DNA of 64,000 nt from Podarcis cretensis (lineage: Eukaryota), in contig OX638157.1 in assembly GCA_951804945.1 (NCBI GenBank), positions 55,180,001 through 55,244,000 of the forward strand. Direction: 5' to 3'. This document shows positions 2,277 through 59,480 of the stretch, piece after piece. The notes beneath the pieces were generated by a model. That model did no database searches and had not been told where the DNA came from. It saw only the letters and a list, made by a program, of their open reading frames with translations. The stretch's first letter is position 1. Every line of letters starts with the position of its first letter. The position numbers and the translations under genes are program-made.

Positions 2277-4139
2277 ATGTCTAGGCTGATAAAGCTCAGG
2301 ATTAATCCTCCCCCCTTTTCTTGTCACAGTCCTGACAAAAATTGCCCCTCAAACTGCTAATTCATCCTTCCAGGGAGCTCCCAACTGGCATTTTGTCCCT
2401 CATTGAGCTGCTGATGTAGTAACAAGTATCTGTTAAACTGTGACAAAGGCTTCCTATTTGGTATGCCTGCTGCTAGTAGATTTGCTAATCATTTCAGGTG
2501 AACAGATTATAAGGCCATTTTCCACTTTCTCTTTTCCTGATATTGCTAGAACATCTTGCAGAAGGCCTTTTTAACCAATTTGGTTGACATGATGAGAAGG
2601 CTGCCAGTTTCCATTTTGTTCAAATTTAGTTTCTTACTGATGAATATCTTTTCTGGCAAGGTCAGACAATGTGCATTTAAAATAGGCTGCTATGGAATTT
2701 TGAGAACATTGCTACTGAAACACTTGAAAGTGCTGTGTATAAAAATTGATTCAGATATTCAACTGGCAAAATATTACCGTTTTTTCCATAGATGTGAAAC
2801 AAAAGAACATGAGGACAGGAATGGTCAAGAATGTCATCGGCCTTAATTTTCCACGCTCTTATTTGAACGTATGAATAGAAGACTCTTACGCTCCGCTCTA
2901 ACTATCTCTTGTGAACTCCAGTGCATACAACACACACAAAACAGCTCCCTCACCTGCTAGGGCTTCCATATTCACTTCAATGGAGGGGGAAATGCAGAAT
3001 GCAGAAAAGCACATGCACAGGAGTTCCACGTGCTACATTTCACAGACTGTATGGGACTCTAGGTTGCAATACAAGTGCTCATTTTATTTGCAAATGTCAA
3101 CATTAAAAGCATTGGACATAAGCTTATTCTTCTGGCCAGCCCTGGATTTTCATAATAGGCTGGTGTACAAAGTCTTGGTCAGAGTTCTTCAATGCTATTC
3201 AACAGCAGTAGCAACAAATGCTGCTTGCTTTCAAATTCCATCCACTATTGCTTCCAAGCTTGGGAGAAAACAAGGTGGTCGTGGTAGCTCCTTAATGAAT
3301 TTCAGAAATGGGTAGGTTACCCCTTAGCCTGTTTAATTTGTGTGGGAGTCTATGCCCCTTTGTTATAGGTCACAGCTCTGAGTAGAGAGACATATTCAGG
3401 CTCTATGGAAACATATTTTCATTTACCCTCTGTGAAGAGCTTGGAAAGTTCATTTAAAATAGGAACTCCATCTCATTCAAGCTCCACATGTCCACAAAGG
3501 AACTAATTCCAGATCATGTCCATCATAGGAGCCAACTTCTAGAGTCTGAGGTCTATATGGCCCCCCTCTAAAATATTTGAGGAGGTCGGGGGGGCCCAAA
3601 AGTTGATGGGCATTGCCATTCAAATGCGTGTTACGTCTTGTGATTGATTATATGGGGAAGGGCTTACCTGCCTCCCCCCATATTTTGTTGAAGTTGTCCC
3701 CTCAGTGTCCACCCCAAACTAGTTCAGTTTATGTTCAATTCACAGTTCACTTCAAGTTCACCTGAATGATTCTTGGCGAAGTGTTTTCAGCATTCAGAAT
3801 GTTACAAGCTGGGGTGCCGAAGCCTAAACTGTAGCTAAGATGACTAAGAAAACATCAACACACACAGAGAGAAGTATGTGGCTTCTTTAATGTACTTTCC
3901 CCAACAATTATTTTCTTTAAGCTTAAAGGATCTAAAGAGCAAAAAACAGACATAAGAGAATGCACTTGAAGTTGAACTAGAAATCGTAAGCAAGTGCTGC
4001 CGCCAAATTAATGTAATTCACATTCACCCAGCAATTACTTTCAGGTATAGTTCAAAGATTTTTTAAACTTCATTAAACTGAACTAGGTGATTCCAAATAC
4101 TGCACCTGCAACACAGAATGTGGCAGAGTGTAACCAGCA

Positions 4140-4490: not shown

Positions 4491-5854
4491 TACTCATTAT
4501 CAAAATCCTGAAGTACAGCACAGTTGCTAGCCCCAAAGAACAATAGAGAAACAAAACCCCAAAAAAGGATGTGAGGGTCAACTTCAAATTATGGATGAAT
4601 ATCCTGTCAGGATTGATGGAAGTCAAAAATTTGAATAAGATGTAAAAGTATGTTTAATTACTGTTGAAAATGATATGTTTTAAAAAAACAACTAATAAAA
4701 ATTATATTTTTTAAAAAAATATTATGGATCAATATGCAGAGCAGAAAATAAATGTACATATTGGCCACCTAAAGTGGGGGGGGGGGAACTGCCCTCCTGA
4801 AAATAAACAAGACACATGTCTGACAGACATCCACAGACCCATTGCTAGCCAGGTTCTTAGTAAAACATGCCTTTGCACATGTGTAAATTGCTCTCCTTTG
4901 GGATGAGCGACACTCACAGCTCCAGTAGTCAACCATTGTTATGGACAGATGAAGCAGATTGAATGTTGTTTCCCAGCAGGGCGTGAAGATGTGTTTTGCA
5001 CAGATTGTGAAGGAGTGGGGGAAATGGCACTGACTTCTCAGCAAATGTGCATTTACTCAACCTTTGTCCCACTGAAGACAGTGGGACTTATTTCTGAATT
5101 TTCGCGCTTAAGACTTAGGGTGCTTAGGATTGCTGCGCATTCAGCTGATTTCAACTGGTGAGAGTCTAGTACGTATTTAACATCTTTAGGGCTTGGAGTA
5201 ATTTGCCTTAGTCCTGCTAGCATGGGTATGACCAGATTTACGTTGGAGGGGGCTCCAGAACCAAGCAATCTGTGACGCAATCGGTCAGTTAGTTAAGCAT
5301 TTTTATTTATTTGATTGATTGGGAGGGGACTGCCCCCTGCCCCACGCTATGTGCATGCCTGCTATATTCACAAAGAAATTGACTTCTGTGATAAGCCTGG
5401 CTGCAGGAGGAATCCTACCTGAGAACAAACGCTGCATAAATGATTTGCAGTCTGATCCACTGGTCAGGGCTGTATATGTGTAGCCTTGGCTAGAGATGTT
5501 GAATAGCATCTTTCAGCTGTTTAGGAGGGGGGAGAGGGGGGGAGGGAGAGAGAGAGTAGGGGGCTGGCTGTGCATTCATAAACACACATACAGGCTTACA
5601 TGGGACAGAGCCTTATACTAAGCAGGCCATTGGTTCATCTATCTCACTACTGAATGCACTGACGGTTTTGACTGCGTTATGCCTGATTTTGTAAGAAAAC
5701 TAGAAAAGGGAAACCTAGCATAGTAATTTTACCATTAAAAAACCCCAGTATAATTATCTGTATTTATTATCCAACTCAAATCATGAGATACAGCAAGGAA
5801 AAAACATGTTGAACTGTATATTATAATATTTAAATATTATTTCCATCTTCTGGC

Positions 5855-20100: not shown

Positions 20101-23100
20101 AGCCTGGAGAGCGAGAGGGTGCGCACCGACCCCTCTCGCTATCCAGGCTTCAGAGAAAGCCTGCATTTTCCCCATAGGACACACACACATTTCCCCTTCA
20201 TTTTTGGAGGGGGAAAAGTGTGTCCTATAGGGCAAAAAATACGGTATGTGTTGACACATAGAATCTGGATCCAGGGCTCTCTCTTTCTCACCTAGTACCC
20301 TTTAGCACAGCATGCAACTTAATCCAAAAAAGCTAAATTGTGCAAAGAAGCATATATCAATCTTAGTCAAGATTTACCTTGCCCCAAATCTGACAATGAC
20401 AATTCAGATGATGTCATATTTCTGACTGTTTTTCAGGTTGAGGGGTAAGCCAGTCAACCTGGAAAAAAGGGCTGCTATCAGGCTCCACCTAAGAGGCCCA
20501 GATCCATCCAAATCCCAACTCTTATGTGAACCTCCCTGCCTCCTCGATCACACATTCTGTTTCTCACCCTATTTCTAAGATATGAATTAGAGTGATGACT
20601 TCACAGGGATGCCGCAACAGTGAATATAAAAAAGGCCGCAACGGCCTTTGACTTGCACACTGTTACATAAATGGTCCTAATATGCCCTCATCAAAAAGTT
20701 GAAGCACAAAACGGCATGATACGATATTAGCGGTGCAATTATAAGAGATTGTCTTCATCTAATCTGCTAATGACCAAACTGTTTTCCAGGGCACACTAGT
20801 GTGCGATGACTGGCTCGCTACTGATCTAGGAAAAAATTAATTAATTCCATCATTAGGGGCTCCGGGGAATCTGAACTACTCACTCAAAGTACCTACTCAA
20901 CGCCTTACTGCATGAGTCACTGATTCAGCAGGACTTTAGCCTAGTCGGATAATTCTGGCTTGCTATCTGAGGAAGGCACAAACAGGGCAGGACTTGAGGG
21001 CAAACGTTCAAGGACCACTTCACAGAATGAGCAGGATGGCCCAGCAAACATAGCAGTGACGGCTTACTGTATTTTGAAGTAATGCGCATTACCATCTACA
21101 AGATTATCTAAGCCAAGACAATTAAGTCTAAAATTATCTAACCGAACCACTGCCTCTGAGACACAGAAGGGTGCAAGGGGGCAGATGGGTTTCCTCCCAT
21201 ATAGCTTCATCTACCTTCAGAGCACACCCTGGGCTCTGTCTGTGCCCAAGTCTGCCTTTTCGTTGGGAGGTACATCTAACACAGTGGCTGTCACAGAGGT
21301 GGGTTATTTCGAGCTCTGGTAAGTCTTTCCTAAGGCTACCCTTGTTCTGCTGCAACTCTGCATTTAGAGTGTCCAACCGCAGCTCTCTTCACATACCCAA
21401 ACTTGGATTGGGATTTCCAATGCTGGGGAAATAGGTCTACTCCTTTCCCCCCCCCATGCAGCACAGCCTTGATCCAGAGGGCCCCCACCAAATTTCCATT
21501 AGTGACAGAAGTGAAATCCCGGAGGCTTAACAATGTAATAGCAGTTTGTGTGATGAGGTCATCTGGACTGGTGCATTGGCGTTAGACCATGGTTTCCCAA
21601 ACTTGAGTCTCCAGCAGATTTTGGACTACAGTTCCCATATCATCCCTGACTACTGGTCCTGATAGCTAGGGATGATGGGAGTTGTGGTTCAAAAACAGCT
21701 GGAGAGCCAAGTTTAGGAAACCCTGATTAGACCCTCTCCTCACCACAATGCAATCCTGTTCAGTTCTCACCCCCATGGGTAGAAAATTGTGTTGGGAACT
21801 TCAAACACACTAGAGTACCAACCTAAGAACATTGATTGGCCTATGCCAACTGTGGTTTAAGATTGATGTGTGCCTCCAATTCAGTTTCAGGAAAAAGGGG
21901 ATATCAAAAGTTTGGAGAAGGGTAACCTCATTCTTATTTTGCCACAAGTAATTCCTGGAGCTGCTCCAAACTCAAATTATCCCTCAGTGAAGGCATGTAC
22001 ACATTTACAATACCTTAAGATGCAATATGTCACATGTGGGGCTCTCTTATGGGGAAGGACCAAAGCTTACATGCTCTGCATGCAGAAGTCCCAGGTTCAA
22101 ATCCTGACACCCCCAGTTAGAGCTGGGAAAGAATCCTGACTGAAATCCTGCACAGCCACTGCCATTCAGTGCAGACAATATTGAACTAGATGGTCTGACT
22201 CAGTATAATGCAGCTTCCCATATTTGTATGCAAAGAGACAAAGTTGGGGAATAATTTGTCCTTGTCTAAGGAAGATTCAATACAGGGGGGGGGGATTAAC
22301 CAAAGTTATCCAAAGCCCCAAATAAATATACATAGACAATAGCTGCTTTACTCCATAGAAACACTCATATTTCTTGAACAGCTTCATAAAGTGACATATT
22401 TAGCTCTACAAGCTGCTATAAAGTAATCTATTTTCAAGAAAACACCAACAAGCCCAGTGCTTACAGTTTCACAGTTCAAGCATCTCGTTTCGTTAGTCAG
22501 CGTTCCCTGAAAAATCTCATGCACCCAGGTGAGTTCTTGCTTGTTGTTCTCTTCCGCTTCATTCATGTTGCCGTTTTTCAGTTTGCCGTTTTGCTTTTCC
22601 TGCTTCTTCTCCTCTTGCAGAATGTCGGCAACGGTATTCAGTAAGTAGTTTAAAAACTCATGGGCATCTTGTTGCATGTAGTTGTCAAAGAGATCTGTAA
22701 AAAAAAAACAGGAGGAAGGCATATATTTTCACGGCTTCAGGCGTTGTGGCTGGAGTCAGGGGTCAGTGCTGTTGGGCAGCTGCCAAGGGCCTATACCTTA
22801 GAGGAGAGCCCACCAGCACTGACCTCCAACCATGGGGGAGGGCCCCAAGGAGGGTTTGGGTGATCTTCCCCACTCTGTGCCATGCTAATATCTGCAGTGG
22901 CAGGAGCAGCACCTTCTCCCCACAGCCTGAGTCAGCACAGGGCTGCCTTCACTTGCTTGCCCATGTGTGGTCCATGTAGCCACCAGGGCATCTGACTGCT
23001 CACCTGTCATTTCCCTTGGTGGTTATTTCTGCCTCTGCCCCATCACTCGATGGCCCTTGTGGTCTCTTCCAACTCTATGATTCTGTCTCAGGTGTGGCAG

Positions 23101-36242: not shown

Positions 36243-39201
36243 GTGCGAGTCTCAGAACCTGTCCTACTACTGCATCTTGAGTATCTTCCAAATTAAAGGC
36301 AAGGAAACCAGACAAGCTTACTGCTTAACAGCACACACAAGTTCTGTCACAAAAGGAAGAAACCAAAGCAGAAATGAAATACAGGCTGCTCCAAGGCCCA
36401 CATTTTCAGAACCCCTTTTGACTTCAGTGAGCAAGCAATGAAGGAATCAGCTTGAGGACTTCCTGTTATAAGCATGTGTTCTGACCACAAGGCTGGTCCA
36501 TCATATTTTGTGATGTGCTCTCATATGATATTATTATTATATATACCAAAGATCCCATGGCAGTTCACAGCAAAAAAATACAGAATAAAACCATAAAGTA
36601 CATAATAAGTACAAGAACAAAACCAACCCATAACAACCCCAACATATTTTAAAGGCCATAGACTGTTCATCAGCCAAAGGCGTGGTTGAAGAGGAACATT
36701 TTTGCCTGGTGCCTAAAGATGTATAATAAAGGTGCCAAATGAACGTCCCAGGGGAGAGCATTCCACAAATGAGGAGGTGGTCCTTGAGCAGTTCAAGGCT
36801 GTATCAGTCAAAACCAACACTGTGAATTGGGCCTGGAAACTAACTGACAGCCAGTGTAGTCGGGCCAGGATTGGTGTAATATTCACACACCATCTTGCTT
36901 CGGTGAGCAACCTGGCTGCCGAATTCTGCACCAGGTGAAGTTTCCGAACCATCTTCAGAGGCAGCCCCACATCTAACACATTGCAGTAATCTAACCTAGA
37001 GGTTATCAGAGCATAGACGACTGAGGTTAGGCTATCCCTGTCCAGACAGGGGCACAGCTGGGCCACCAGCCAAAGTTGATGGAAGGCACTCCACGCCACT
37101 GAGGCCGCCTGAGCCTCAAGCAACAGCAAAGGATCCAGGAGGACCCCCAAACTATGCACCCACTCCTTCAGAGAGTGTAACCCCATCAATAGCAGGCAAC
37201 CTCCCATTCATGCAGTCATGGGAATCGCCCACTAACAGTGCCTCAGTTGGCTCTCATCCAGTCCATTACCGAGGCAAGGCAATGTTCCAACACATCCATG
37301 CCATAGCTGTAGATGTAAAGGAGAAGTAGATCTGTGTGTCATCAGCAGATTGCTGACCATGTGCTCCAAAACTCCAGATAACCCCACTCAGAGGTCTCAT
37401 GTTGATAGCGGATAAATTGAGCAGAGCTTTTTTTTGGCCCAGAACTCACTAGAATTCAGTTCCGGCATCTCTCAGTTGAGTGTCATTGCCATTATAAGAG
37501 AACAAGGGAAGTATTCATGGTGAGTTCTGGCACCTCTTTTTGTAGCAAAACAGCACTGGCCCGGAGGAACCACACAATGAGGGTTCCACAGGGCCGAAGA
37601 ACGTTCCCCAAGCATCAACCTCTGGAAACAGCCATCCAAGTGGGACTGGAACCACTGCAAAGGGGTGCCACCCACTCAAACTCCAGAAGGAAAGCATGGG
37701 CAATGGTACTGAAAGCCAGTAAGAGGTCAAGGAGAATTAACAAGGACACATTTCTCCTGTCTCTCTCTCCTGACAAGAGCTCATCATACAGGGCGACCAA
37801 AGCAGTTTCAGTGCCAAAACCGGGCCTAAGTCCCAACAGAAATGAATCTAGAAAATCGGTTTCCTCCAAGAGTGCCTGGATCTCATCTGTGACCACCTGC
37901 TCAAGAACCTTGCCCAAGAAGGGGGGATTAGCAACTGACGGTAGGTAGTTACTTATATTTTCTGAGAGCAGGGAGGGTTTCTTAAGGAGTGGTTTTTACC
38001 ACTAACTCTTTCCCTAGCTATTGATGCCCTCCAGTCTAAGCATGTACACACTGGTACAGCAAGTAAGATCTAGGTAGTTGTTTTTCACACAATCTGTTAC
38101 CTACAGACACACAAGGAGATGACTCACTGGACCTAGTGACTTTTCACCCTTTGCAGGGAGGGGACTTGCCCACACCCTGCAAAATATTGCAATTCATTAA
38201 AGAGCTACTACTATACAAGTTTTCCAGCAACTAGTTTGCATTGTCTCTCCTCCACCCTTCAGATAAATAACACTTTTTTATCACCTAGCTTCCAATTTAC
38301 AAAGGAGAAATATGTTTGGAAAATGTTGACACATTCGGTCAATAAGTTGAATGCAAAAACCTCCTGGTTAACTAAATTTCTAAGCGAAGAAGAGCAAAAC
38401 TGATCAAAGCTCTGCATCTAACTCCTGATTTATTCATTTCACTCAAAAGAGAGGCAGGTTGAAGGCCACATCTCTTAGCTCGGCTTATGCACAGAAGCTT
38501 AAACAACTCTTATTTGGACCAGTTCCTTTTGGAGCACATGCTTCCTTGAGAGACCAGCACTGCCCAGACGGAAATCACATGTTCATGTTTGAACCTGCCC
38601 AACATGTTTGCACGCTGAAAAAAACAATTCCTCCCTTGTTTCCAAAACCCAGTTATTCAGATCCCTGGCTCATCCGCACCTAGCACTGTACACCCGGTAT
38701 TCTCCTGTGCAAAAAAAAAGCAACACTGTGCAAACTTTCAAGGACGCCACCTCCAGCACCCCGCCCACCGGATCAACAGAGAGATCGCCTGCATTTCCAG
38801 ACTTCCGCAGCTCCTCCTTCCAAAATGGCCCCGATCCTGGGAAGGGATTACTCGGGAGCAAGTCCTACTGGGCTGCAGTGGGCCTTTTACTTCCAAGTTC
38901 AGTGTGGCCCAGGATTGCAAGCCTGAAACTCTGGCAACCAATTCGGGGCGGTGGGGGGGGTGAAGCCTTGCCCTCTCTGCACGCCCCTTTCTGTGGATTC
39001 CGATCTCCCCATAACTGGGTGGGTTGTAGGGGGTGGGGAGGCGGAAGAGTGTGAGTGTGTGTGTGTGTGTGTGTGTTTAGTGGGTGCGGGGGAGGATTGT
39101 GCGGCTCTCTCCCCCGCCCCGTGCGCCCCTCCCGCCCCCAGCCAGGCCGAGCAAGTAATACTCACCATATTACAAATGGAGGCGATGTTTCTGACAGTCA
39201 T
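11098..39201 (-). CDS. USP46: Ubiquitin carboxyl-terminal hydrolase 46, complete spliced CDS: join(39166-39201, 27300-27380, 24650-24863, 22465-22694, 17874-17950, 14719-14802, 14140-14337, 12575-12653, 11098-11199)
   Basis: Nine exons of 36+81+214+230+77+84+198+79+102 = 1101 nt give 366 aa in frame. N-terminus [12 protein letters not shown] and C-terminus YQSRE* distinguish USP46 from USP12. Cys box FGNTCYCNS (C44) and His box GHY...FDDD are intact. Confidence 0.98.
12575..12653 (-). CDS. USP46: USP46 exon 8 ([26 protein letters not shown]), catalytic His/Asp
   Basis: Acceptor cttttag|T; donor GAG|gtcagt; 79 nt. Confidence 0.97.
13067..13202. mobile_element. hAT MITE (TIR CAGTGCTTTTTT)
   Basis: 8-bp TSD actaaagg on both sides. 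Confidence 0.85.
13697..13950 (-). mobile_element. tRNA-derived CORE-type SINE (Squam3-like) with (CTT)n tail
   Basis: Head cagtgtggtgtagcggttaagag...ggttcgattcccc, core gtgaccttgggccagtcac, (GAA)n on +. Confidence 0.8.
14140..14337 (-). CDS. USP46: USP46 exon 7 ([19 protein letters not shown]...VVVHCGS)
   Basis: Acceptor catag|G; donor AG|gtgagc; 198 nt; matches ORF 14136..14336. Confidence 0.97.
14719..14802 (-). CDS. USP46: USP46 exon 6 ([28 protein letters not shown])
   Basis: Acceptor tttttcag|AGAC; donor AG|gtaagc; 84 nt. Confidence 0.97.
15888..16119. mobile_element. Tigger/pogo-type MITE
   Basis: TIRs and TA TSD. Confidence 0.85.
17874..17950 (-). CDS. USP46: USP46 exon 5 ([26 protein letters not shown])
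   Basis: Acceptor ttgcag|GTT; donor AG|gtaaat; 77 nt. Confidence 0.97.
18132..18357. mobile_element. Penelope-like remnant: perfect palindrome with 96-bp arms (18132-18227 / 18229-18324), hammerhead motif in each arm
   Basis: 1-nt spacer at 18228; TSD acaccaaaacaa at 18123 and 18358; same family as the 9124-9709 element. Confidence 0.85.
19618..20244. mobile_element. Tc1/mariner-superfamily (Tc2-like) non-autonomous element, TIR CCGTATTTTT, with internal GC-rich repeats
   Basis: ta|ccgtatttttcgcccc...gggcaaaaaatacgg|ta. Confidence 0.8.
21588..21725. mobile_element. Palindromic hAT MITE, same group, older
   Basis: Near-palindrome flanked by ttagac on both sides. Confidence 0.7.
22050..22222 (+). 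mobile_element. Degenerate tRNA-derived SINE (Squam2-like)
   Basis: tgcatgcagaagtcccaggttcaaatcc head and ctgactcagtataa...gcagcttcc tail. Confidence 0.55.
22465..22694 (-). CDS. USP46: USP46 exon 4 ([17 protein letters not shown]...RCLNCET)
   Basis: Acceptor ttttacag|AT; donor ACT|gtaagc; 230 nt; matches ORF 22384..22722. Confidence 0.97.
23762..24125 (+). mobile_element. Sauria SINE (cccgtacgggcaggggtacc tail subtype)
   Basis: Full head with B box GGTTCGAATCC; (ACCTTT)n tail. Confidence 0.9.
24650..24863 (-). CDS. USP46: USP46 exon 3 ([15 protein letters not shown]...ISRLRKEN), catalytic Cys; GC donor
   Basis: Acceptor ttttgtag|TTT; donor AATG|gcaagt; 214 nt, phase fits exon 4. Confidence 0.96.
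25290..25530 (-). mobile_element. L2 3'-end fragment
   Basis: gggagggcgttc..ggcgccactacc..aaggccct motif, similar to the ends of the other L2 copies. Confidence 0.6.
27300..27380 (-). CDS. USP46: USP46 exon 2 ([27 protein letters not shown])
   Basis: Acceptor ttccctag|GGC; donor AAT|gtaagt; 81 nt. Confidence 0.97.
29456..29664. mobile_element. Tigger/pogo-type MITE, one end truncated
   Basis: Same family internal sequence. Confidence 0.8.
29988..30024. repeat. (AAT)n microsatellite
   Basis: Read directly from sequence. Confidence 0.95.
31939..32196. mobile_element. Related Tc2-like MITE, opposite orientation
   Basis: ta|ccgtattttttgctctataag...cttatagagcgaaaaatacgg|ta. Confidence 0.8.
35181..35527 (-). 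mobile_element. Sauria SINE
   Basis: Same structure, minus strand. Confidence 0.9.
36208..36240. repeat. (GT)n microsatellite
   Basis: Read directly from sequence. Confidence 0.95.
36530..37990 (-). mobile_element. L2-clade LINE, 3' RT fragment, degraded and interrupted at ~37422-37558 by a MITE-like insert
   Basis: ORFs with [25 protein letters not shown] and [15 protein letters not shown]. Confidence 0.85.
39166..39201 (-). CDS. USP46: USP46 coding exon 1 ([12 protein letters not shown])
   Basis: ATG at 39201-39199; donor ATG|GTGAGT. Confidence 0.96.
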
Positions 39202-39205
39202 GAGT

Positions 39206-39264
39206 CTAAAGGTTGCAGTGATCCCGCACCGCCATCTTTATGAGGTGAAAACCGGAATGGTCAT
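39206..39264 (-). promoter_or_regulatory. Two tandem uORFs: MTIPVFTS* (39264-39238) and MAVRDHCNL* (39235-39206)
   Basis: gccATGa and aagATGg contexts; second stop is 4 nt before the main ATG. Confidence 0.7.
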
Positions 39265-40670
39265 GGCTGGGGAGGATCGGGAAGAGGCCGGGAGGAGCAG
39301 GGAGAGGCGGCGGCGGGGGGGGGGGGGAGTGGAGAGAAACGGAAGCTCTGCCGAGGCGGGGGGGAGGGGGAGGGGAGGGGGAGAGAGATCGGCTGCTCCG
39401 CCTCGGGGCTCTGCAGGATCGGAGGCAGAGGGCACCCACCCACCCCCTTTCCCTGCTCTGCCGGCTAATTCCGCCGCTCCCAGACCCGTCCAGGAGCCGC
39501 TGGGGGTGGCCGGGGTCTCTCTCTCAGCAGCAGCAGCAGCAGCGCGGCATTTCTGGGGGCGATCGGCTTCTCTCGTGGGCGCGCAGCCGCCACCAGGCGA
39601 GCGCGGATCAGCGGCGCTGGTTTCCAGCAGCTGGGACAGGCGCGATCTCAATCCCCCCGCTTTCCTTCCTCCTCCTCCTCCTCCTCCTCCTCTTCCTCCT
39701 CCTCCGCCTCCTTCCCCCGCAGCGGGTGCTGTTGCGCCTCTTCCCTTCTCTCCATTGCAACGCAGCGCCCGGTGGTCACCTTTGACAGCGGCCGGGGAAG
39801 GGGAGGTCAGGGCTGGGTGAGTGGCGTCGCCACCAGCCAACCGCCCCGGGAAGGGGGCGCGCCGAGCAGCCAATGCCAGAGAGGCGGGAGGCGGGTTCCG
39901 CCAGCTACGGGTCAAAGGGGCACCAAGGCGTTGGGTGTTTCTCCCATCCCCACCATCAAAGAGTCAGGGGTCTCGCCTCTTTTTTCCACGTTTTAGGACG
40001 CCAGGGCAAGATGCCGGCTTCAGATCCTGCAGGAGCAGCACTCAGAAGGGCGACACTTGAGCACACGCGTGCATCAAGTGATAGGGAACACTTGATGCAC
40101 GCGCGCGTGGGGAAACGTCGCCGTTTCCAAGCCTGGGAGAGGATATTTCCTCTCCGCTGGAAGCTGCGCATCCCTCGCGCCGCCTGGGATGCAATTGCTT
40201 TCCAGGCGAATCAGTTCTCACATCCTTGGTGCAGCCAGTCAACTGTGCAGTGATCAAGTGCAGAGAGGGACCCAGTGAGGCATGTGTGCATGTCTTGTAA
40301 AGCAGACGTTTGCTTCTGGAGAAAGAAACATCATCTCCCTCGCTGACAAGGACAAGGGGGAAATGTTACTGATTCTGCTCTTCCACCACCAATATCAAGA
40401 GACATATATAACCAAGGCCACGCAGGAGGAGAGGTGCCCAGCGCGTTTTTAAAAATGCAAAGGATGGCCTGCTGGTTCTTGGGCAGCATTCTGTTCCCAG
40501 AACCCACAAGCAAGACATGAGTAAAATAGCACCCTCCTTCTTAAAGAATGGCATATAAAATGTCATGTTTGCAGCCTGAGAGTTGAATCTTACCCAGTGC
40601 TCTTTGGGGGGGGGGGTACTCAAGGGTTCACAGGATCAGCACCTTTCCTCCCTCCAAATGTTAAAAAGTA

Positions 40671-50869: not shown

Positions 50870-51110
50870 TCCCTCGCCAATCCCGCCTTCTCATTCAGAT
50901 AAGTCACGTGCCTTCTCCTCTCCACCAATCAGCGACGCAGCCAGAAGAGGCGCTTGCCTGGAGTGGACGAATTCTCTCTCTTCCCACCCCACCCCCCACC
51001 GCTCGCGCCGTTCTCATCCATTGCGCGCGCCCTGGGCCCTAAGTCTCGCGCGATCGGCTTTGCCCGCTCGCTATATAAACCCGCTGAAGGCGCACTTCCC
51101 TCCCTTTTGC
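50870..51110 (+). promoter_or_regulatory. Promoter of snoRNA host gene: CCAAT x2, E-box, TCTCGCGAGA-like motif, TATA, pyrimidine (TOP-type) initiator
   Basis: CCAAT 50877 and 50925; CACGTG 50905; TCTCGCGCGA 51044; TATATAA 51072; CTTCCCTCCCTTTT 51095-51108; CpG island. Confidence 0.8.
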
Positions 51111-51236
51111 GCCCTTTGCGCCGCTGGGCTGGTGGACCGGGGTGGTTTGGCGCTGCTGGGCCTACCGAGGTTGGAGGTAAGCATGGCCGCGGGCGAGGTG
51201 GAGCTGGCCTTGAAATTGGACTTCCCCCCCCCGCGG

Positions 51237-51371
51237 AGCCCCTTAAACATTGCGCGCCGCAAGCGTCCCGTGCTTGAGGTGGTCAACACAGGGGGGCAGA
51301 GGATCCCTCTCACTGAAACCCGGGGCAGGGCTGCCGCCCTCTGCTTCCGGATCCTGTCGTGAGAGACACGT
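51237..51371 (+). ncRNA. Second, diverged GC-rich SNORA26 paralogue (H/ACA snoRNA)
   Basis: H box AGAGGA 51298-51303, ACA 51366-51368. 3' hairpin CTCTCAC/GTGAGAG with pocket TGAAAC...ATCCTGTC. Shares CTTAA, GTGCTT and CAACACA with the 54625 copy. Confidence 0.78.
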
Positions 51372-53628
51372 GTTGGAGCTCCTGCTTGGCCCGGGAAGGG
51401 CCGTTTCGGTGTGCAACTGTCTGTGGCGCTGGATTGACGCCCGTGGTTTGGAGGGGTGGGTGGGTGGGTGGCAGGCCCCAAAATAGATGCCCCGCACCCC
51501 CTTAAGTTTCCCAGCTTCATTCAAGAAAGAGCACTTAATAATAATAAAAAAGCGTGTCGTTGAACCCATGCATTCAGTCACCGGCCTAAATTGTAGAGTT
51601 GGGAGATCTCCCCAAAGCTCATCTAGTCCAGCCCCCCTCCCCCCCCAATGCAGGATTTCATAGCCTGTGAAATACAGGCGAAAGAGGATGAAACATATTA
51701 AAGGGCTAACTAGTATCCACGTTTGAATGGCTTGTCTTTCACTGCTCAGCAAGAGTTAATTTTGCTGTGCAAATAAGTTAAGAGTTGGGCATGAAAGCCT
51801 GGCAATGTCCCCTTGTATTTTATGCTTGGGCTGCATATGTACTGTACTTTAAAAGCACACTCAAGGGGTTTTGAGCATTGTGGTTTACCCCTTACAGAGT
51901 TGTAATTCCCAGCAGCCCTTAGAAAGCTGCAGTACCCAAAATTATTTGAGGGAGGAAATGTGCTTTAGATGCACAGTGCACACACAGCCTTATAAACCCT
52001 GCTTTTCCCCAAAAAACGTTCAGAGTGAAATAAGATTGGGAAGGTATATAAAAAGGCAGTATTAAATTTAGGAAATGCGTAACTAAAATTTAATTATGGA
52101 TGATTGGCAGATAAGCTGAAGGAAGTCCATAATATATAATTTGTGATAAACTTTTGGTATGGTATATGTATAATGTAGAAAACTAATAAAAACTTTGATT
52201 TAAAAAAAACCGTTCAGAGTGGCCTTTATATACGGCCAGGCCTGCTTACAGCTGCTGGAACTACATCAGATACCTTCAGACAATTTTTCTGGGCATTGAA
52301 AAAGAAACACATTTTTTTAAAAAAAATAAATTGCAAATTTTGTTGCCATAAAAATATTTTGAGTACTTTTCCCCCTCACATAGAAGCATGTCTTCTCTCT
52401 TACGTTTTGTTAACCCTATAAACATCCATCACACTGGACCAATAGAAATAATAAATATTCTTTCACTTCCAACCCTTCACCCTAATGTTCCAGGGCAGGT
52501 TACAGCATTAAAACAGTTTCCAATCATAAAAAATAGGATGGGTCCTAAAAATATGTTGTATGAGGATATTGAGGAACAAGGAACCATTTGTGGCATCTTC
52601 TCACAATGTTCACTCTGCAGTATGAGTCTCTAGAGTAGAACTTGAGGGTCAGGATAGTGCTCTGGAACTACAAAAACTGACAGAAAATGCTGCTTGAATG
52701 CTACAGGAAGTCAAATTTAAAACACACACCTGCCCAGAACCTTTTGGTTGCTAGCATCGGGAAGAAAGCAATAAATCTCGATTGAATTAGTATTCCCATT
52801 GTGCATTCCCCCTAATTTGGTCTACAAGCAGTGACATGATGAAAAACCAGTGTTGCAATTCTTCAGATTAGTGGGCTTTTGATACATGTTATGACAAAAT
52901 TTGGTACAGTTGCCTTGACTTTACAAGGTTGAAACATTTGCTGCTAGCTTTGTGTTCTTCAAAAGCCATAGTAACAAAAGTAGCCAATTAACTAATTCTT
53001 CTGTTGCAGGTATGTTCCAGTAAAAGCAAAAGCCTTGTCATCTTACCCGCAAGGCCTTCCACAAAGTGTTCAGTAACTGAACAAGCTGGAAGCAATATTC
53101 CTTTAGGTAGAAGGTAAGAATTAATGACAATCCTTTCTTTAGATCATTTGAATCTGTCTCTTGGCCCCAGAGCTTGCAGTGAGCCCCTTACACTAACTTT
53201 TCATTCTATTTTGCATCCATCCCAAGTGCCTTACTTAAAACTCAGTGGCCTTGCCCCAGTCTACTTTTTGCCCTCATTTTCCATTACAACGCTGCCTGTG
53301 ATTCTTTTCCCTCCAGTGCTGTCTTACAAAGCTCTCTTCTAAACAATTCTACCTATGTTTCCTTGCTGTCCTTGATGTCTGTAACTTATCCAAGGATGCC
53401 TGCATGATGTTACTTCAAATCCTTCCTCTGTACCACCCATTTTTCCAATAAGTCATTGGCCCCTAACCCCTTGCTGCATATTGCATATGCATGTACGCAT
53501 CTCTGGCCTCTCAAAATACTGCCTACCAGCAACCTGTTTTTTGCAGTTCTCTTTATTAAGTGTCATGGAATTTGATGGTGCTAGATAATCATTGCTTGAG
53601 ACTACTTGCTTATGGCCAGTAACTTGTA

Positions 53629-53948
53629 CAGTGGTGCCCCGCAAGACGAATGCCTTGCAAGACGGAAAACCCACTAGATGAAAGGGTTTTCCGTTTTAGA
53701 GGTACTTTGCAAAACGAATTTCCTATGGGCTTGCTTCACAAGATGAAAATGTCTTGGGAGTTCCTGCGGGTTTTTTTCCCTTTCCCCCCACTTTTTTCTA
53801 AGCCGCTAAGCCGCTTATCTGCTTATCCGCTAAGCCACTAATAGCGCTAAGCCGCTAAGCCGTCAATAGGCTTGCTTCGCAAGACGAAAAAACCGCTAGA
53901 CGAAGAGACTCGCGGAACGGATTAATTTCGTCTTGCGAGGCACCACTG
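53629..53948. mobile_element. Tigger MITE of a second family (TIR CAGTGGTGCCYCGCAAGACGAA)
   Basis: TA TSD; 3' ~130 bp nearly identical to 57625-57757. Confidence 0.85.
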
Positions 53949-54066
53949 TACCAGTGTTGCACAAAATGCTAAGTGAGATAAAGTGCAGCTTTATTCCTGT
54001 GTAGGAGATGCAGGGTCAGAACATGGGCTGATTAATAAAAAACAAAGAAACAATGCTAGATTTGTA

Positions 54067-54397
54067 AGGTAAAGGTAAAGGGACCCTTGACCATTAGGTC
54101 CAGTTGTGACCAACTGGGGATGTGGCGCTCATCTCGCTTTATTGGCCAAGGGAGCCAGCGTACAGCTTCCGGGTCATGTGGCCAGCATGACTAAGCCGCT
54201 TCTGGCAAACCAGAGCAGTGCACGGAAATGCGGACCTATTTATCTACTTGCACTTTGACATGCTTTCGAACTGCTAGGTTGGCAGGAGCAGGGACTGAGC
54301 AACTGGAGCTCGCCACCTCATGGGGATTAGAACCACCAACCTTCTGATTGGCAAGTTCTAGGCTCTGTGGTTTTACCCACAGCACCATCCGTGTCCC
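54067..54397 (-). mobile_element. Sauria SINE
   Basis: Head, core and tail on minus. Confidence 0.9.
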
Positions 54398-54624
54398 TCC
54401 AGATTTGTGAGTAGGGAGGATTTAAAGGAAAAGGGCCTAATACAGCAACTGATGAATCTGAAAAGCATTGTGCTTAAATGGTTTGGTCTGTTTCTTGAAT
54501 TGGCGTGAATGTTTGCGGATCAGTGGATTTAGTAGTTGCCAAGTGATAAACTTCAATGTGTGAACTAAGTATTTGGAGTCAAAGTCTTTGGAGTTGCAGG
54601 CACTAGATTTTCCCCTTTTTAGCT

Positions 54625-54742
54625 TTGCCCTCTTAAGGCTGGTGGTGCTTTAAGTGGCCAACACAAAGGGGTAGAGTAATTCTCTCTTAAACCCAGAGGC
54701 GAGAACGCAGCTTTCCTCTGGATCCTGTCGGGAGGAACAAAC
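54625..54742 (+). ncRNA. SNORA26: H/ACA snoRNA SNORA26
   Basis: Two hairpins, H box AGAGTA 54673-54678, ACA 54737-54739. Motifs TGCCC..TTAAGG..GTGCTTTAAG..AACACA..AAACCCAGAG..GGATCCTGTC resemble human SNORA26 as recalled. Confidence 0.88.
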
Positions 54743-55331
54743 ATAAGAAAATACTTGTTAAATGTCTACTGCGATACAATGATCTATCTTGCTCTAGAAT
54801 TGCTGTGACTGATGTCAGTGGCATTTTAAACATCGGCCCATTGATTTTGTACTTTCTTGATAGTTAGGTACATGTAAAACTTTATAGGATGTAAAAGTTA
54901 AGATGGATATATTCTTTTAGGAGATGCCTGGGCGGTTATCCAGAGCTTTGAGCATCCCTGACAACTAGGAAGACCAAGCATCTGGGTGAGTACTATGAAC
55001 AGCTGCAGATGAATGGATTATAGATGGTTCTGTAGAAACTGCAGGTGTGGCAAGGGAAGATTCATTCCTCTGGCTGACGTTTCATTACCAAGTAAAGAAG
55101 AGGCACAATGCAGTAGCCTGTAAGAACAATGATTTCTGTTTGTGCAGTGGAACTTTCCCCTCCCCGTTCATGCCCCACACTAGAGAAATTCTGAAACCAT
55201 GTGAGAAAACAAAAAATATTGGGTTGGTTTTTTGGTTTGTTTGTTTTTTATACATAGTCCTTCTGCCCACCCCATTACCCTTTACAAATCAAAAGTTACT
55301 TTGTTACTTGAGAAACAAAAGTTTTATTTTA

Positions 55332-55838: not shown

Positions 55839-58800
55839 CAGCGGTTCTCAACCTGTGGCTCACGACCCCTTTGGGGGTTGAACAACCTTTTCACAGGGGT
55901 CGGCAAGCTTTTTTGGGGGTGAGCTCCTCTTCCAACAGCCTCTGCCACTCGCAAGGGCAAGCACAAGAGGCGCGTTTAGCAGAGCGGCGGTGGCACAGGC
56001 GGCAGCATGAGCGGCAGCAGCAAACCTCGGCCACACGCAGCAACCACTCGCCCATTGGCCAAAATGGATAACAATACAAAAAATAAAGCTGTAAAATCAA
56101 GGCAGGTGTCAACACTGATGGCATTCACTTATGCCCATAAGTATAGCCAACTGATGTCTGTTTTAGCCTAACGTTTCCTCCTGTGCTACTTTTTTCTACT
56201 TCCAGAGTTTCTTGCACCCGGGTCCCATGGTTAAATTAAACAGCAATATGGAAAGATTCTTTAGTTTGGCTGAAGACTTTGCAGCGGAGTTCCTGGAGGT
56301 TGTGACGACGGAGGGCTACGTTCCACAGCAGGTCTTCAACTGCGACGAGACCGGGCTGTTTTGGAAGAGGATGCCCAAAAGGACTTTCATCACTCAGGAG
56401 GAGGCCAGGCTGCCTGGCCACAAGCCCATGAAGGACTGTCTGACCCTGCTCTTCTGTGCCAACGCGACCTGAAGATCAAGCCCCTGCTGGTGTAGGACTC
56501 GGAGAACCCACAGGCCTTCAAGAAACACAAGGTCGACAAGGAGCAGCTGAGTGTCATGTGGCGATCCAACAGTAAGGCTCGGGTCACACGTGTGCTGTTT
56601 GTGGACTGGGTCAATCTTGCTTTTGGCCCTGCTGTCAAACAGTACCTGCTGGACAATGACCTGCCACTGAAGGCTTTGCTTCTGATGGACAATGCTCCTG
56701 CTCATCCTAAAGGCCTTAAGGAGGACTTGTTGGAGGAGTTCAGCTTCATCAACATCATGTTCCTGCCGCCTCATCGCCAATTTCAAAAAACTCTACACCA
56801 AGGAGCTTTTCAGGCGATGCTTCGAGGTGACTGATTGCACCAACATCACCCTGCGGGAATTCTGGAAGGACCACTTCGACATTGTCATCTGCTTGAAGAT
56901 TATCACCACGGCCTGGAACGGGATCAGCCAGAGAAATTTGAATTGCGCTTGGCGCAGCCTGTGGCCAGACTGTGTGGCACAAAGTGACTCTGATGCACCA
57001 GAGTCAACAGTGGTGCAGGACATTGTTTCCTTGGGGAGGACCATGGGCCTGGAGGTCACAGAGGAGGACGTCTGCGAGCTGGTGGAGGAGCACGACCACG
57101 AGCTGACCACCCAGGAGCTGGTCGAACTGCAGGCAGAGGCTGCGCAGGAGCAGGCCTTGCTGGAAGAGGAAGCAGCTGAGGAACGGCTGTCCTCCAAAGG
57201 ACTGAGAAACATTTGCCAGAAGTGGAAAGATGTGCAGGCTTTTGCACAACGGCACCACCCTGACAAGGACCTGACACGTGACCTTGGGAACACTTTTGAT
57301 ACGAGGGTCATGTCGTATTTCAGGGAGGTGCTGAAAAGGCGGATGAAGCAGCAGACCACGGACAGGTTCTTCAGCAAGAAGCAAAGAGTGTAAGAGGAAC
57401 CTTCTTTGAGTTGTCCCCCAGAGTCTTAGAAAATGTATGTACAGTACTGTACACTTTGGTGATTTTTAAATGCTTTTCTGTCATGTTTAGAAATTTATAT
57501 TATTGTTCCTTCAATTTTTGAAATGCTCTTTACAGTATGTGTGACTTTAAAGAGCACTTAATAAACTCTTTTTGTACCAAATTTGGCTTTGTTTGGACTT
57601 TTTTTGACCATAGGAACGCATTAAGCCGCTAAAAGCCGCTAAGCTGCTAATAGCGCTAATCCGCTAAGCCGTCAATGGGCTTGCTTCGCAAGACGAAAAA
57701 ACCACTAGACGAAGAGACTCGCGGAACGGATTAATTTCGTCTTGCGAGGCACCACTGTACTAGTAAAAAGCAAGAACTTGTTGAGGATGAGAAAGAAGAA
57801 GTTGATGAAGAAAGGAGCCGCAAATACAGAAAACAAGATGAAAGTTATTTGTATTTGGGTTTCATTAGTGTGAACAATGAAGAGCACCCAGTGTGTTTTG
57901 TATTTGAAAATACTCCCTATTGAATGCATGTTGCCTTGCAAAATGAAAACCACTTAGAAAGTGTTTATAAGAATGATGTGGGTAAACCAATGGAATATTT
58001 CTCTAGAAAACTAAGTCAGGTGAAATAATCAGTATTTAATAAACAGGTTACCATCCTTTAGTAAAGCTCTTTTAGCATCCTATAAAGTAACCTACCAGTT
58101 TGCAAAATGTAAGAAACCCATACAATAGCAGAAGAACACTATTGGTATGGTGTCTACTATGGTTGGAGTATCCTCTGACAATGCAATCGGCCACCAAATT
58201 CAAGATTTAGGAGAGGGTCTTAATGAGCAGCTTTTAGAAAAAATGAGGAGGAAGGACTTTGGTTTGCAATTCGATGTGTCCACTGATAGCAATAGAGATG
58301 CTCTTCTAACCTGTTATGTGCGGTTTGATGATGATCCAAATGAAATGGTGGAAGATATTTTTTGGTAAGGACATAAATGTAGGAGTAGCAGGCAAAGATT
58401 TGTTTGGAATTGTAGACAACTTCATGACAGTAAATAAAATAGACGGGGCTCATTCTGTTGGTGTGCGCACTGATGGTGCTCATTCCGTGGCAGGCTGTTA
58501 CAATGGCCTAAAAGCACTCATTCTCAGCTGAGCCCCTGATGCAGTTTATACACATCATACTACCCATAAGGAAGAACTTGCTTCTCAGCATTTGAGTGCT
58601 GATTTGAACAAAGTCCTTCAAAGAGTGCTAGATGTGGTTAACTTCATCCAAACTCAACCTCAGAAAGCTAGATTTGTCAATAAAATGTGTTGAGATGGCC
58701 ACTGACCATACGGCTCTTCTATTTTACAGTCATACTTGATGGCTTTCCTGAGGAAATGTATTAACTGTTGTTCTTGAAGTTACTCAAGAAGTCTATTCTT

Positions 58801-59480
58801 ACCTTGACCAAGAAAACCATTCCAGTGCTAAGTGTTTTCTGGAGGCAGACTTCTTGCTAAAAGTTGCCTATCTCTCTGATATTTTCAAAAAGCTGGACTT
58901 GTTCAATAACTCTTCACAAGGGAGCGAAACTCATTTGCTTAGACTCACTTGTAAAGTTTTGGCCTTTGAAAATAAACTTCTTCTTTGGAAGAGGAAAACT
59001 GAAGGAGGAGGAATGGACTGCTTCCCAGTTCTACAGCAAGAGAGATGCTATTTCACTAATTAGTGGACATTTAGCTCATCTCAGTGCCCATTTTGATAAG
59101 TACTTTTTTGAAAATGGTGACAGGTTTCAGTTTCAAGATCCCTTTGGTACTGATCCTCCATGTTTAATACTGTAGAAGAGGAGGAACTGATACAACTTTC
59201 ATCAGACGCTTCACTAAAAGCAAAGCTTATAGACACGCTAGTGCCAAAATTTTGGACTTCAGTAAAGAGTTCCCAACACTGAGTAACAAAGCACTGAAGA
59301 TAATGATTAATTTTGCAACATCCCATCTATGTGAGTCTGGGTTTCCAGCCATGGCTGTCATAAAAAGCAAATACAGCTCAGGATTTGATGTGGAGAAAGA
59401 AATGAGAGTAGCCGTAACTAAATTGGTGCCAATATTTGAAAAGCTGTGCAACAATAAGCAAGCTCAGGTTTCTTGCTAAT
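55839..59480 (+). mobile_element. Decayed hAT (Charlie/Buster, ZBED5-like) transposon interrupted by the Tigger element
   Basis: 5' TIR CAGCGGTTCTCAACCTGTGG; residual KALLASYKV..KKP, FGLQFDVSTD, VAYLSDIF, FATSHLCESGF, QAQVSC* with many stops and frameshifts. Confidence 0.85.
56268..57757 (+). mobile_element. 5'-deleted Tigger transposon with frameshifted DDE transposase
   Basis: VFNCDETGLFWKRMP, ALLLMDNAPAHP and IANFKKLY motifs; 3' TIR followed by TA. Confidence 0.9.

Follow-up and report, generated by a model that had tools for sequence, protein, structure and literature searches.

In the window analyzed here, by which we mean the whole 64,000-nucleotide stretch of lizard DNA, we found a second SNORA26 gene in intron 1 of a host gene that carries the known type of copy in intron 2. 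The reading that we prefer, at a probability of about 0.58, is that this upstream copy is an old SNORA26 tandem duplicate in intron 1 of a DANCR-type host and likely a double guide, with its 3' pocket predicted to act on the equivalent of human 28S U4522 and its 5' pocket on that of 28S U4549. The gene duplicate as such is not new, two SNORA26-clan copies per host being already known in zebrafish and Xenopus; what is new here is the 5' pocket as predicted guide for a 28S site that in humans is fully modified and is listed without a guide. Feature positions are given in Table 1.

Table 1. Host gene, neighboring marker, and the two SNORA26 copies, with positions in the window
Feature	Positions	Strand	Evidence and remarks
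USP46 coding exon, divergent neighbor, synteny marker for DANCR	22456..22695	-	best PDB sequence matches USP46, E 1.5e-46; USP12, 1.3e-38
TATA-like box of host gene	51072..51079	+	sequence
Host exon 1	51095..51176	+	5'TOP-like pyrimidine tract 51095-51108, start inferred; spliced contigs cover 51124-51176, join to 53010
Host intron 1, GT..AG	51177..53009	+	joint 51176 to 53010 in relatives' contigs
Upstream SNORA26 paralogue, box H/ACA snoRNA gene, 135 nt	51237..51371	+	Rfam RF00568, fold, full-length collinearity with sister copy
5' hairpin	51238..51297	+	lower stem 51238-44/51291-97, upper stem 51255-65/51271-81; MFE and centroid agree
5' pocket left strand ACAUUGC	51247..51253	+	predicted pairing with 28S bases 3' of U4549 equivalent; 5 pairs in a row, or 7 if one target base bulges out
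5' pocket right strand CAACACA	51284..51290	+	predicted pairing with 28S bases 5' of U4549 equivalent; 7 Watson-Crick pairs, own LSU 3518-3524
H box AGAGGA	51298..51303	+	sequence; no listed change in contigs of six relatives
3' hairpin	51307..51365	+	pocket UGAAAC (51314-19)/UCCUGUC (51352-58); predicted guide, 28S U4522 equivalent
ACA box	51366..51368	+	sequence; three bases from 3' end, 3' end itself inferred
Alternative 5' splice site	51408..51409	+	joint 51408 to 53010, contigs of one relative, two studies
Host exon 2	53010..53113	+	contigs end at 53113, loose letters match 54922 onward
Downstream SNORA26 copy	54611..54742	+	intron 2; Rfam match 54625-54742, 99.2 bits; true 5' end ~14 nt upstream of that match

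The upstream element is real and is a SNORA26 member by every feature testable here, and as a duplicate it is ordinary. The original prediction of a second paralogue in intron 1 was borne out by the Rfam SNORA26 covariance model, which gave a significant match at 51250-51371 (45.6 bits, E 4.4e-5), only 5.6 bits above the gathering score of 40, and by the intron position, which comes from spliced contigs of relatives. The window holds just two Rfam matches of any family at the gathering level, both SNORA26, namely, this one and the downstream (sister) copy, and a genome-wide RF00568 search of 1.5 Gb returned the same two copies (best 48 of ~188,000 candidates scored). Since the upstream copy passes the gathering score, the suggestion that it was likely missed by annotation is doubtful. 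Membership in SNORA27 (RF00443) was considered and rejected, with no match at E 10 (50 candidates scored). The upstream copy shares 86 identities with its SNORA26 sister versus 72 with SNORA27, LSU 2718 (the SNORA27-type 28S U3694 site) is not among the sites listed for its 5' pocket, and the true SNORA27 of the lizard genome lies on another contig (103 bits).

The upstream copy takes the hairpin-hinge-hairpin-tail form in MFE, centroid, and constrained folds. In the 3' hairpin, the fold contains both stems quoted in the original prediction, a lower stem CUCUCAC/GUGAGAG (51307-13/51359-65) and an upper stem CCGGGGCAG/CUGCUUCCGG (51320-28/51341-50, one bulge). The H box, ACA, and pockets are also kept, as had been proposed: the H box fits ANANNA, and both pockets place the target uridine 14 nt from the box (class range, 14 to 16 nt). 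The right strand of the 5' pocket, whose first base is 14 nt upstream of the H box, is an identical heptamer in the sister copy. There is a U.U opposition beside the target in the 3' pocket, and the left arm of the 5' pocket is short or bulged. The folding energy is ordinary (z -1.45; 16 of 200 shuffles as good), and opening the 5' pocket costs 2.5 kcal/mol (from -26.7 to -24.2). A different upper-stem register, ACCAC/GUGGU, was rejected at -17.4 versus -24.2 kcal/mol. At the 3' end of the RNA, positions 51355-51368 resemble the sense strand of rRNA shortly before the RNA's own 3' target, and this segment could form a small hairpin hiding the ACA box. The label "GC-remodelled" is accurate as a description, with a GC content of 0.64 against 0.50 in the sister copy, but it names no peculiarity, as the surrounding 50900-51500 has 0.65; because its GC equals that of the promoter island around it, the shift needs no special explanation.

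The 5' hairpin had also been described as lengthened in the upstream copy. We found this to be an artifact, because the lower stem of the sister copy (CCCCUUU 54612-18/AAAGGGG 54665-71 in the fold) precedes the first position of RF00568, lying ~13 to 14 nt upstream of the model start; the SNORA27 model reaches as far as 54610 at the same copy. At full length, the upstream copy of 135 nt and the sister copy of ~132 to 133 nt are collinear, with 86 identities in 138 columns (62%). No similarity was found between the flanks of the two copies, which argues against a recent cassette duplication. Because RF00568 starts within the 5' pocket and leaves out the lower stem and the left antisense strand, which lie as much as 14 nt ahead of the match (window 54611-54625), model-based annotations lose half of the 5' guide element. 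A left strand UUAAGGC, read for the sister 5' pocket from the Rfam boundaries, proved wrong once the full hairpin was folded. Human SNORA26 has the same offset, its expression beginning 11 nt ahead of the annotated gene (PMC4914119 dataset).

The splicing of the host was traced in three runs from two related species, whose contigs we guess to be RNA. The joint 51176 to 53010 appears in 2 of 4 runs, in contigs of two relatives, and the continuation past 53113 in 3 of 4; because of this joint and the continuation from 53113 to 54922, the two copies are placed in introns 1 and 2. The upstream copy is thus intronic in a spliced host, with a GT..AG joint in relatives. It is also transcribed within the host RNA, as seen in contigs of relatives guessed to be RNA, which cover the snoRNA stretch but cannot show the ends of a processed RNA. 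The alternative donor at 51408 lies 37 nt past the snoRNA and retains it within an extended exon 1; this donor may regulate snoRNA yield.

DANCR lies between USP46 and RASL11B across vertebrates (PMC12694859). The lizard host is DANCR-syntenic, having the USP46 exon upstream on the minus strand and two small-GTPase-like exons ~57 kb downstream. These two exons we take to be RASL11B, and Pfam gave no match on the two short exon pieces. A GC-rich island at 38900-39900 on the minus strand, ~11.7 kb from the host promoter, presumably holds the first coding exon of USP46, to judge from an N-terminal peptide that we recognized. The surroundings also contain a broken DNA transposon at 55980-57760 (presumably Tigger-like) with transposase pieces at 56167-57393, a short element at 53630-53950 that shares the transposon's end sequence, and, just downstream of the host gene, a broken transposase remnant at 57900-59480 that from its translation we take to be hAT-like.

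Comparison with relatives gives modest support for constraint on the upstream copy. In the DNA contigs of four relatives, 3 variant sites are listed for the 135-nt RNA, compared with 16 for the 229 nt of intron on its flanks (p 0.037 in a one-sided Fisher test), or 24 in 306 when exon 1 is added (p 0.015); the flank count stops at 51540 and omits one site that only a second contig shows, and the difference lists are complete for two relatives and hold 20 of 24 and 17 of 18 differences for the others. Five of the 16 flank sites fall in a GGGT repeat, and the host promoter is as conserved as the snoRNA (5 listed variant sites in the 150 bases at 50950-51099). Seven sites within the RNA are listed in a more distant species (10 of 13 differences listed per contig). 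The boxes and pockets are untouched by any listed change in the contigs of six relatives. Among the listed changes, an A at 51256 and a U at 51259 strengthen the pairing, that at 51338 leads to a wobble, those at 51275, 51324, and 51342 each break a stem pair, and none in the six relatives' contigs is a two-sided compensatory change.

Guide targets were sought among all 1,086 uridines of the lizard's own 18S, 5.8S, and 28S rRNAs. The published SNORA26/27 target is 28S U4522. The top site of the 3' pocket of the upstream copy was own LSU 3498, with 6+6 bp including one G.U, and this position corresponds to human Psi4522 by the alignment in the PMC6984369 supplement. The predicted pairing agrees with the original prediction, which had placed the 3' pocket on the LSU U4522 stretch and had expected it to pair better there than the 54625 copy does; the sister copy makes 6+4 bp. 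A pocket scan that demands pairing next to the target misses the right arm of 6 bp in this 3' pocket.

For the 5' pocket of the upstream copy, the top site among the 1,086 uridines was own LSU 3525, with 7+5 bp and a score of 11.5, the next site scoring 6.0; a duplex fold at this site gives 7+7 bp with one bulge. A score of 11.5 at any uridine was reached by 12 of 1,500 shuffled pockets and by 51 of 1,500 random segment pairs from the window. Under strict geometry the pairing is 7+3 bp, and 15 of 1,500 shuffles were as good. The left arm makes 3 pairs in direct register, and a 5-pair left register needs either a two-base loop formed by G51254 and C51255 or a G.U plus a bulge costing 3.4 kcal/mol. 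As controls, the 5' pocket of the lizard's own SNORA27 had LSU 2718 as its top site (7+8 bp, best of five registers tried), and two of its three SNORA40 copies, the two scored, went to 18S-1174 (4+9) and 28S-4546 (3+7) with nothing at 4549.

LSU 3525, which is 27 nt beyond LSU 3498, corresponds to human U4549 by the human line of the PMC6984369 supplement. Human 28S U4549, which is 4579 in newer numbering, is 100% Psi (PMC6182160), and the Xenopus equivalent is also Psi, in the context GUGUUG-Psi-C-GCAAU (PMC6984369 supplement); the AUUGC of the lizard left strand is fully complementary to the GCAAU of the Xenopus context. The guide of 28S Psi4549 is given as "Unknown" in 2023 tables (PMC9941101). 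We found no guide assignment for 28S-4549/4579 in the literature, and snoRNA databases and further supplements may hold one. The available text of PMC2653536, PMC3349704, PMC13507652, PMC11541003, and PMC10227372 has nothing on a 4549 guide, and their ACA26 is a different RNA; "28S-4549" is likewise absent from dataset file 1 of PMC4914119, where the SNORA26 5' pocket has other, low-confidence targets. The human count is ~104 Psi (PMC11084827), to be set against some 1,100 rRNA uridines, and because about 1/10 of rRNA uridines are Psi, a chance match on a Psi is about ten times rarer than the nulls alone indicate. These nulls ignore the inherited likeness of the 28S site to an 18S site, however; as the two are alike, the match may in part be an inherited by-product, and the shuffle nulls overstate its significance.

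The 28S sequence 3' of the target (own LSU 3527-3533) varies among vertebrates, reading GCGAUCG in the lizard, GCCAUGG in human, and GCAAUAG in Xenopus, and this variation is a natural test of guide-target coevolution. A 15-base LSU motif has 31 genomic occurrences, including dispersed single copies, with 12 places on contig C18 beside regular rDNA arrays on C20 and C23.

The 18S site in question is own SSU 1132, the equivalent of human 18S U1177, whose Psi was without a known guide in 2024 (PMC11084827). Read from its true 5' end, the sister copy fits this site at 3+11 bp (element at window 54618-54665) with a score of 13.5 (36 of 1,000 shuffles reach 11 or more). It fits LSU 3525 too, at 7+4 bp and a score of 10.5 versus 11.5 for the upstream copy, and so the upstream copy need not be the working guide. 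For the 28S and 18S sites, respectively, duplex sums are -13.7 and -4.6 kcal/mol with the upstream copy and -11.7 and -14.4 with the sister. Between the left strands, CUUUGC in the sister versus CAUUGC in the upstream copy, most of the 18S pairing is lost and the 28S pairing is kept or improved. The right strand that they share makes 7 pairs with 28S and only 3 contiguous pairs with 18S, and its conservation therefore points to 28S. These pairings suggest that the upstream copy is likely specialized rather than redundant. The earlier term "functional duplicate" is apt for a paralogue that boxes, pockets, conservation, and host transcription support, but it undersells the copy, since the predicted 5' targets of the two differ.

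If the upstream copy were instead redundant, only its 3' pocket would work, on the 28S U4522 equivalent shared with the sister and SNORA27; the 5' pocket would be a decayed 18S-1177 element, its fit to 28S-4549 a by-product, and Psi4549 would be made by another RNA or by the sister. The pattern UG(G/U)-U-U-GC(A/G)A common to 18S-1177 and 28S-4549 favors such an explanation, as do the sister's own fit to the 28S site, the non-ideal left-strand geometry of the upstream copy, and the listing of the Xenopus upstream copy with 28S-U3651 only (PMC6984369 supplement). We nevertheless regard it as unlikely, though a serious contender: in both copies the right strand complements 28S perfectly over 7 bases and 18S poorly, the two left-strand changes add 28S pairs rather than being scattered, and neither pocket strand has a listed change in six relatives.

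The preferred reading, a duplicate specialized on the 28S-4549 equivalent, can be set against the known SNORA26 systems. SNORA26/HBI-6 (RF00568) in intron 2 of human DANCR is alike in host position class, boxes, and the 3' pocket for 28S U4522, and its 5' right strand, (C/U)AACACA, is like the lizard's, a primer showing CUAACACA (PMC12694859 S5 Table). By hand, the human right strand UAACACA makes 7 pairs, one of them G.U, with human 28S before U4549, and human 28S reads GCCAU 3' of that uridine. Unlike human SNORA26, the lizard upstream copy lies in intron 1, has the left strand ACAUUGC, and shares 62% identity with the copy in intron 2 of the lizard host. The target given for the human 5' pocket is 28S-4606 (reported) or 28S-2299 (predicted, ICI 0.38), not 4549 (PMC4914119). 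We tried the equivalent of 28S-4606, and it fits neither lizard copy.

The Xenopus tropicalis pair snoRA26/snoRA26x is like the lizard pair in being tandem, on one strand, and different in the 5' pockets, with the copies 0.7 kb apart (PMC6984369). Its downstream copy targets 18S-1177, as is predicted for the lizard downstream copy, and its upstream copy is given no 5' target. The same paper states that the 18S-1177 element is absent from SNORA26 of every other species (PMC6984369); the 3+11 bp pairing predicted for the lizard downstream copy when the 14 nt outside the Rfam model are counted in would contradict that claim. Zebrafish snora26 and "snora27" in dancr also resemble the lizard arrangement, in that a noncoding host next to USP46 carries two small-RNA patches, each in an intron of its own; the lizard intron-1 RNA is SNORA26-like, versus the "snora27" label in zebrafish, and PMC12694859, which proposes that the second patch became MIR4449, assigns no targets. 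In SNORA40 (RF00561), one pocket reads the same two look-alike stretches three bases upstream, at 18S-1174 and 28S-4546 (PMC6984369). SNORA40 differs in belonging to another family and host, in using its 3' pocket, and in missing 4549 in the lizard. Three near-identical SNORA40 copies lie on three lizard contigs; the lizard 28S has a U at the 4550 equivalent, as does human, and 28S-4546, which the two SNORA40 copies fit, is unmodified in Xenopus.

In human DANCR, intron 1 holds MIR4449 and intron 2 holds SNORA26 (PMC11177382), so that each lizard copy is in the same intron of the same host as its human counterpart in position. This positional correspondence agrees with the original prediction, which had offered MIR4449 as a possible relic of the upstream copy; the idea is not new, the discussion of PMC12694859 having already treated MIR4449 as a former snoRNA of the DANCR locus. 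Supraspliceosomal mir-4449 reads lie entirely on the non-annotated arm (PMC6237757), which fits an atypical hairpin and is no test of a snoRNA link.

A lizard copy itself decaying toward a MIR4449-like state would seldom be released, would persist mainly as structured leader sequence of the isoform with the alternative exon 1, and would be conserved through the promoter CpG island. We consider this improbable. Both boxes, both pockets, and the 14-nt distances are intact despite 38% divergence from the sister and the loss of flank similarity, and the normal donor at 51176 occurs in deeper contigs than the alternative one (171 versus 49 in one run, contig depth being a poor measure). These points outweigh the ones that decay would explain, namely, a donor at 51408 that keeps the snoRNA exonic in two studies of one relative, a GC content equal to that of the island, a low Rfam score, pair-breaking changes in relatives, and the MIR4449 at the human position. 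That the 5' pocket acts on another RNA (snRNA, tRNA, or mRNA) is very improbable, since even though the scan covered only 18S, 5.8S, and 28S rRNA, the rRNA site stands far above the next one and falls on a known Psi, a state of ~104 of some 1,100 rRNA uridines.

Under the double-guide reading, the host pre-RNA, which is spliced in relatives, would yield an intron from which, as family knowledge suggests, a 135-nt RNA is trimmed out and assembled with dyskerin, NOP10, NHP2, and GAR1. In each pocket the target uridine would sit 14 nt from the respective box, H or ACA, a distance that the geometry provides, and the particle would be expected, as in the rest of the family, to catalyze pseudouridylation. 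The SNORA26 5' pocket may be able to read two look-alikes, 18S U1177 and 28S U4549, with the intron-2 copy fitting both and 18S best. From the pairing, a division of labor is conceivable in which the duplicate specialized on 28S-4549 and the sister kept 18S-1177.

A wider reading is tentative, and we hold it at somewhat less than an even chance as a whole: the SNORA26 5' pocket would be the long-missing guide for 28S Psi4549/4579 and 18S Psi1177, overlooked because the gene annotation and Rfam model omit the first 11 to 14 nt with the left antisense strand. The tandem copies in DANCR would split these jobs, the lizard intron-1 copy serving 28S-4549, and in humans, where that copy would have become MIR4449, SNORA26 or an unannotated H/ACA RNA overlapping MIR4449 would still make the modification. 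Earlier predictions missed the pocket because the family model begins inside it and human expression starts ahead of the annotated gene.

If this wider reading is true, the DANCR cancer locus would be tied to two ribosome modifications. A candidate pocket with exact geometry makes the guides of 28S Psi4549 and 18S Psi1177 testable in a standard guide assay. The lizard pair offers a predicted worked case of duplicated snoRNAs dividing their targets, and the upstream copy may show, still intact in a reptile, the patch that MIR4449 occupies in humans.
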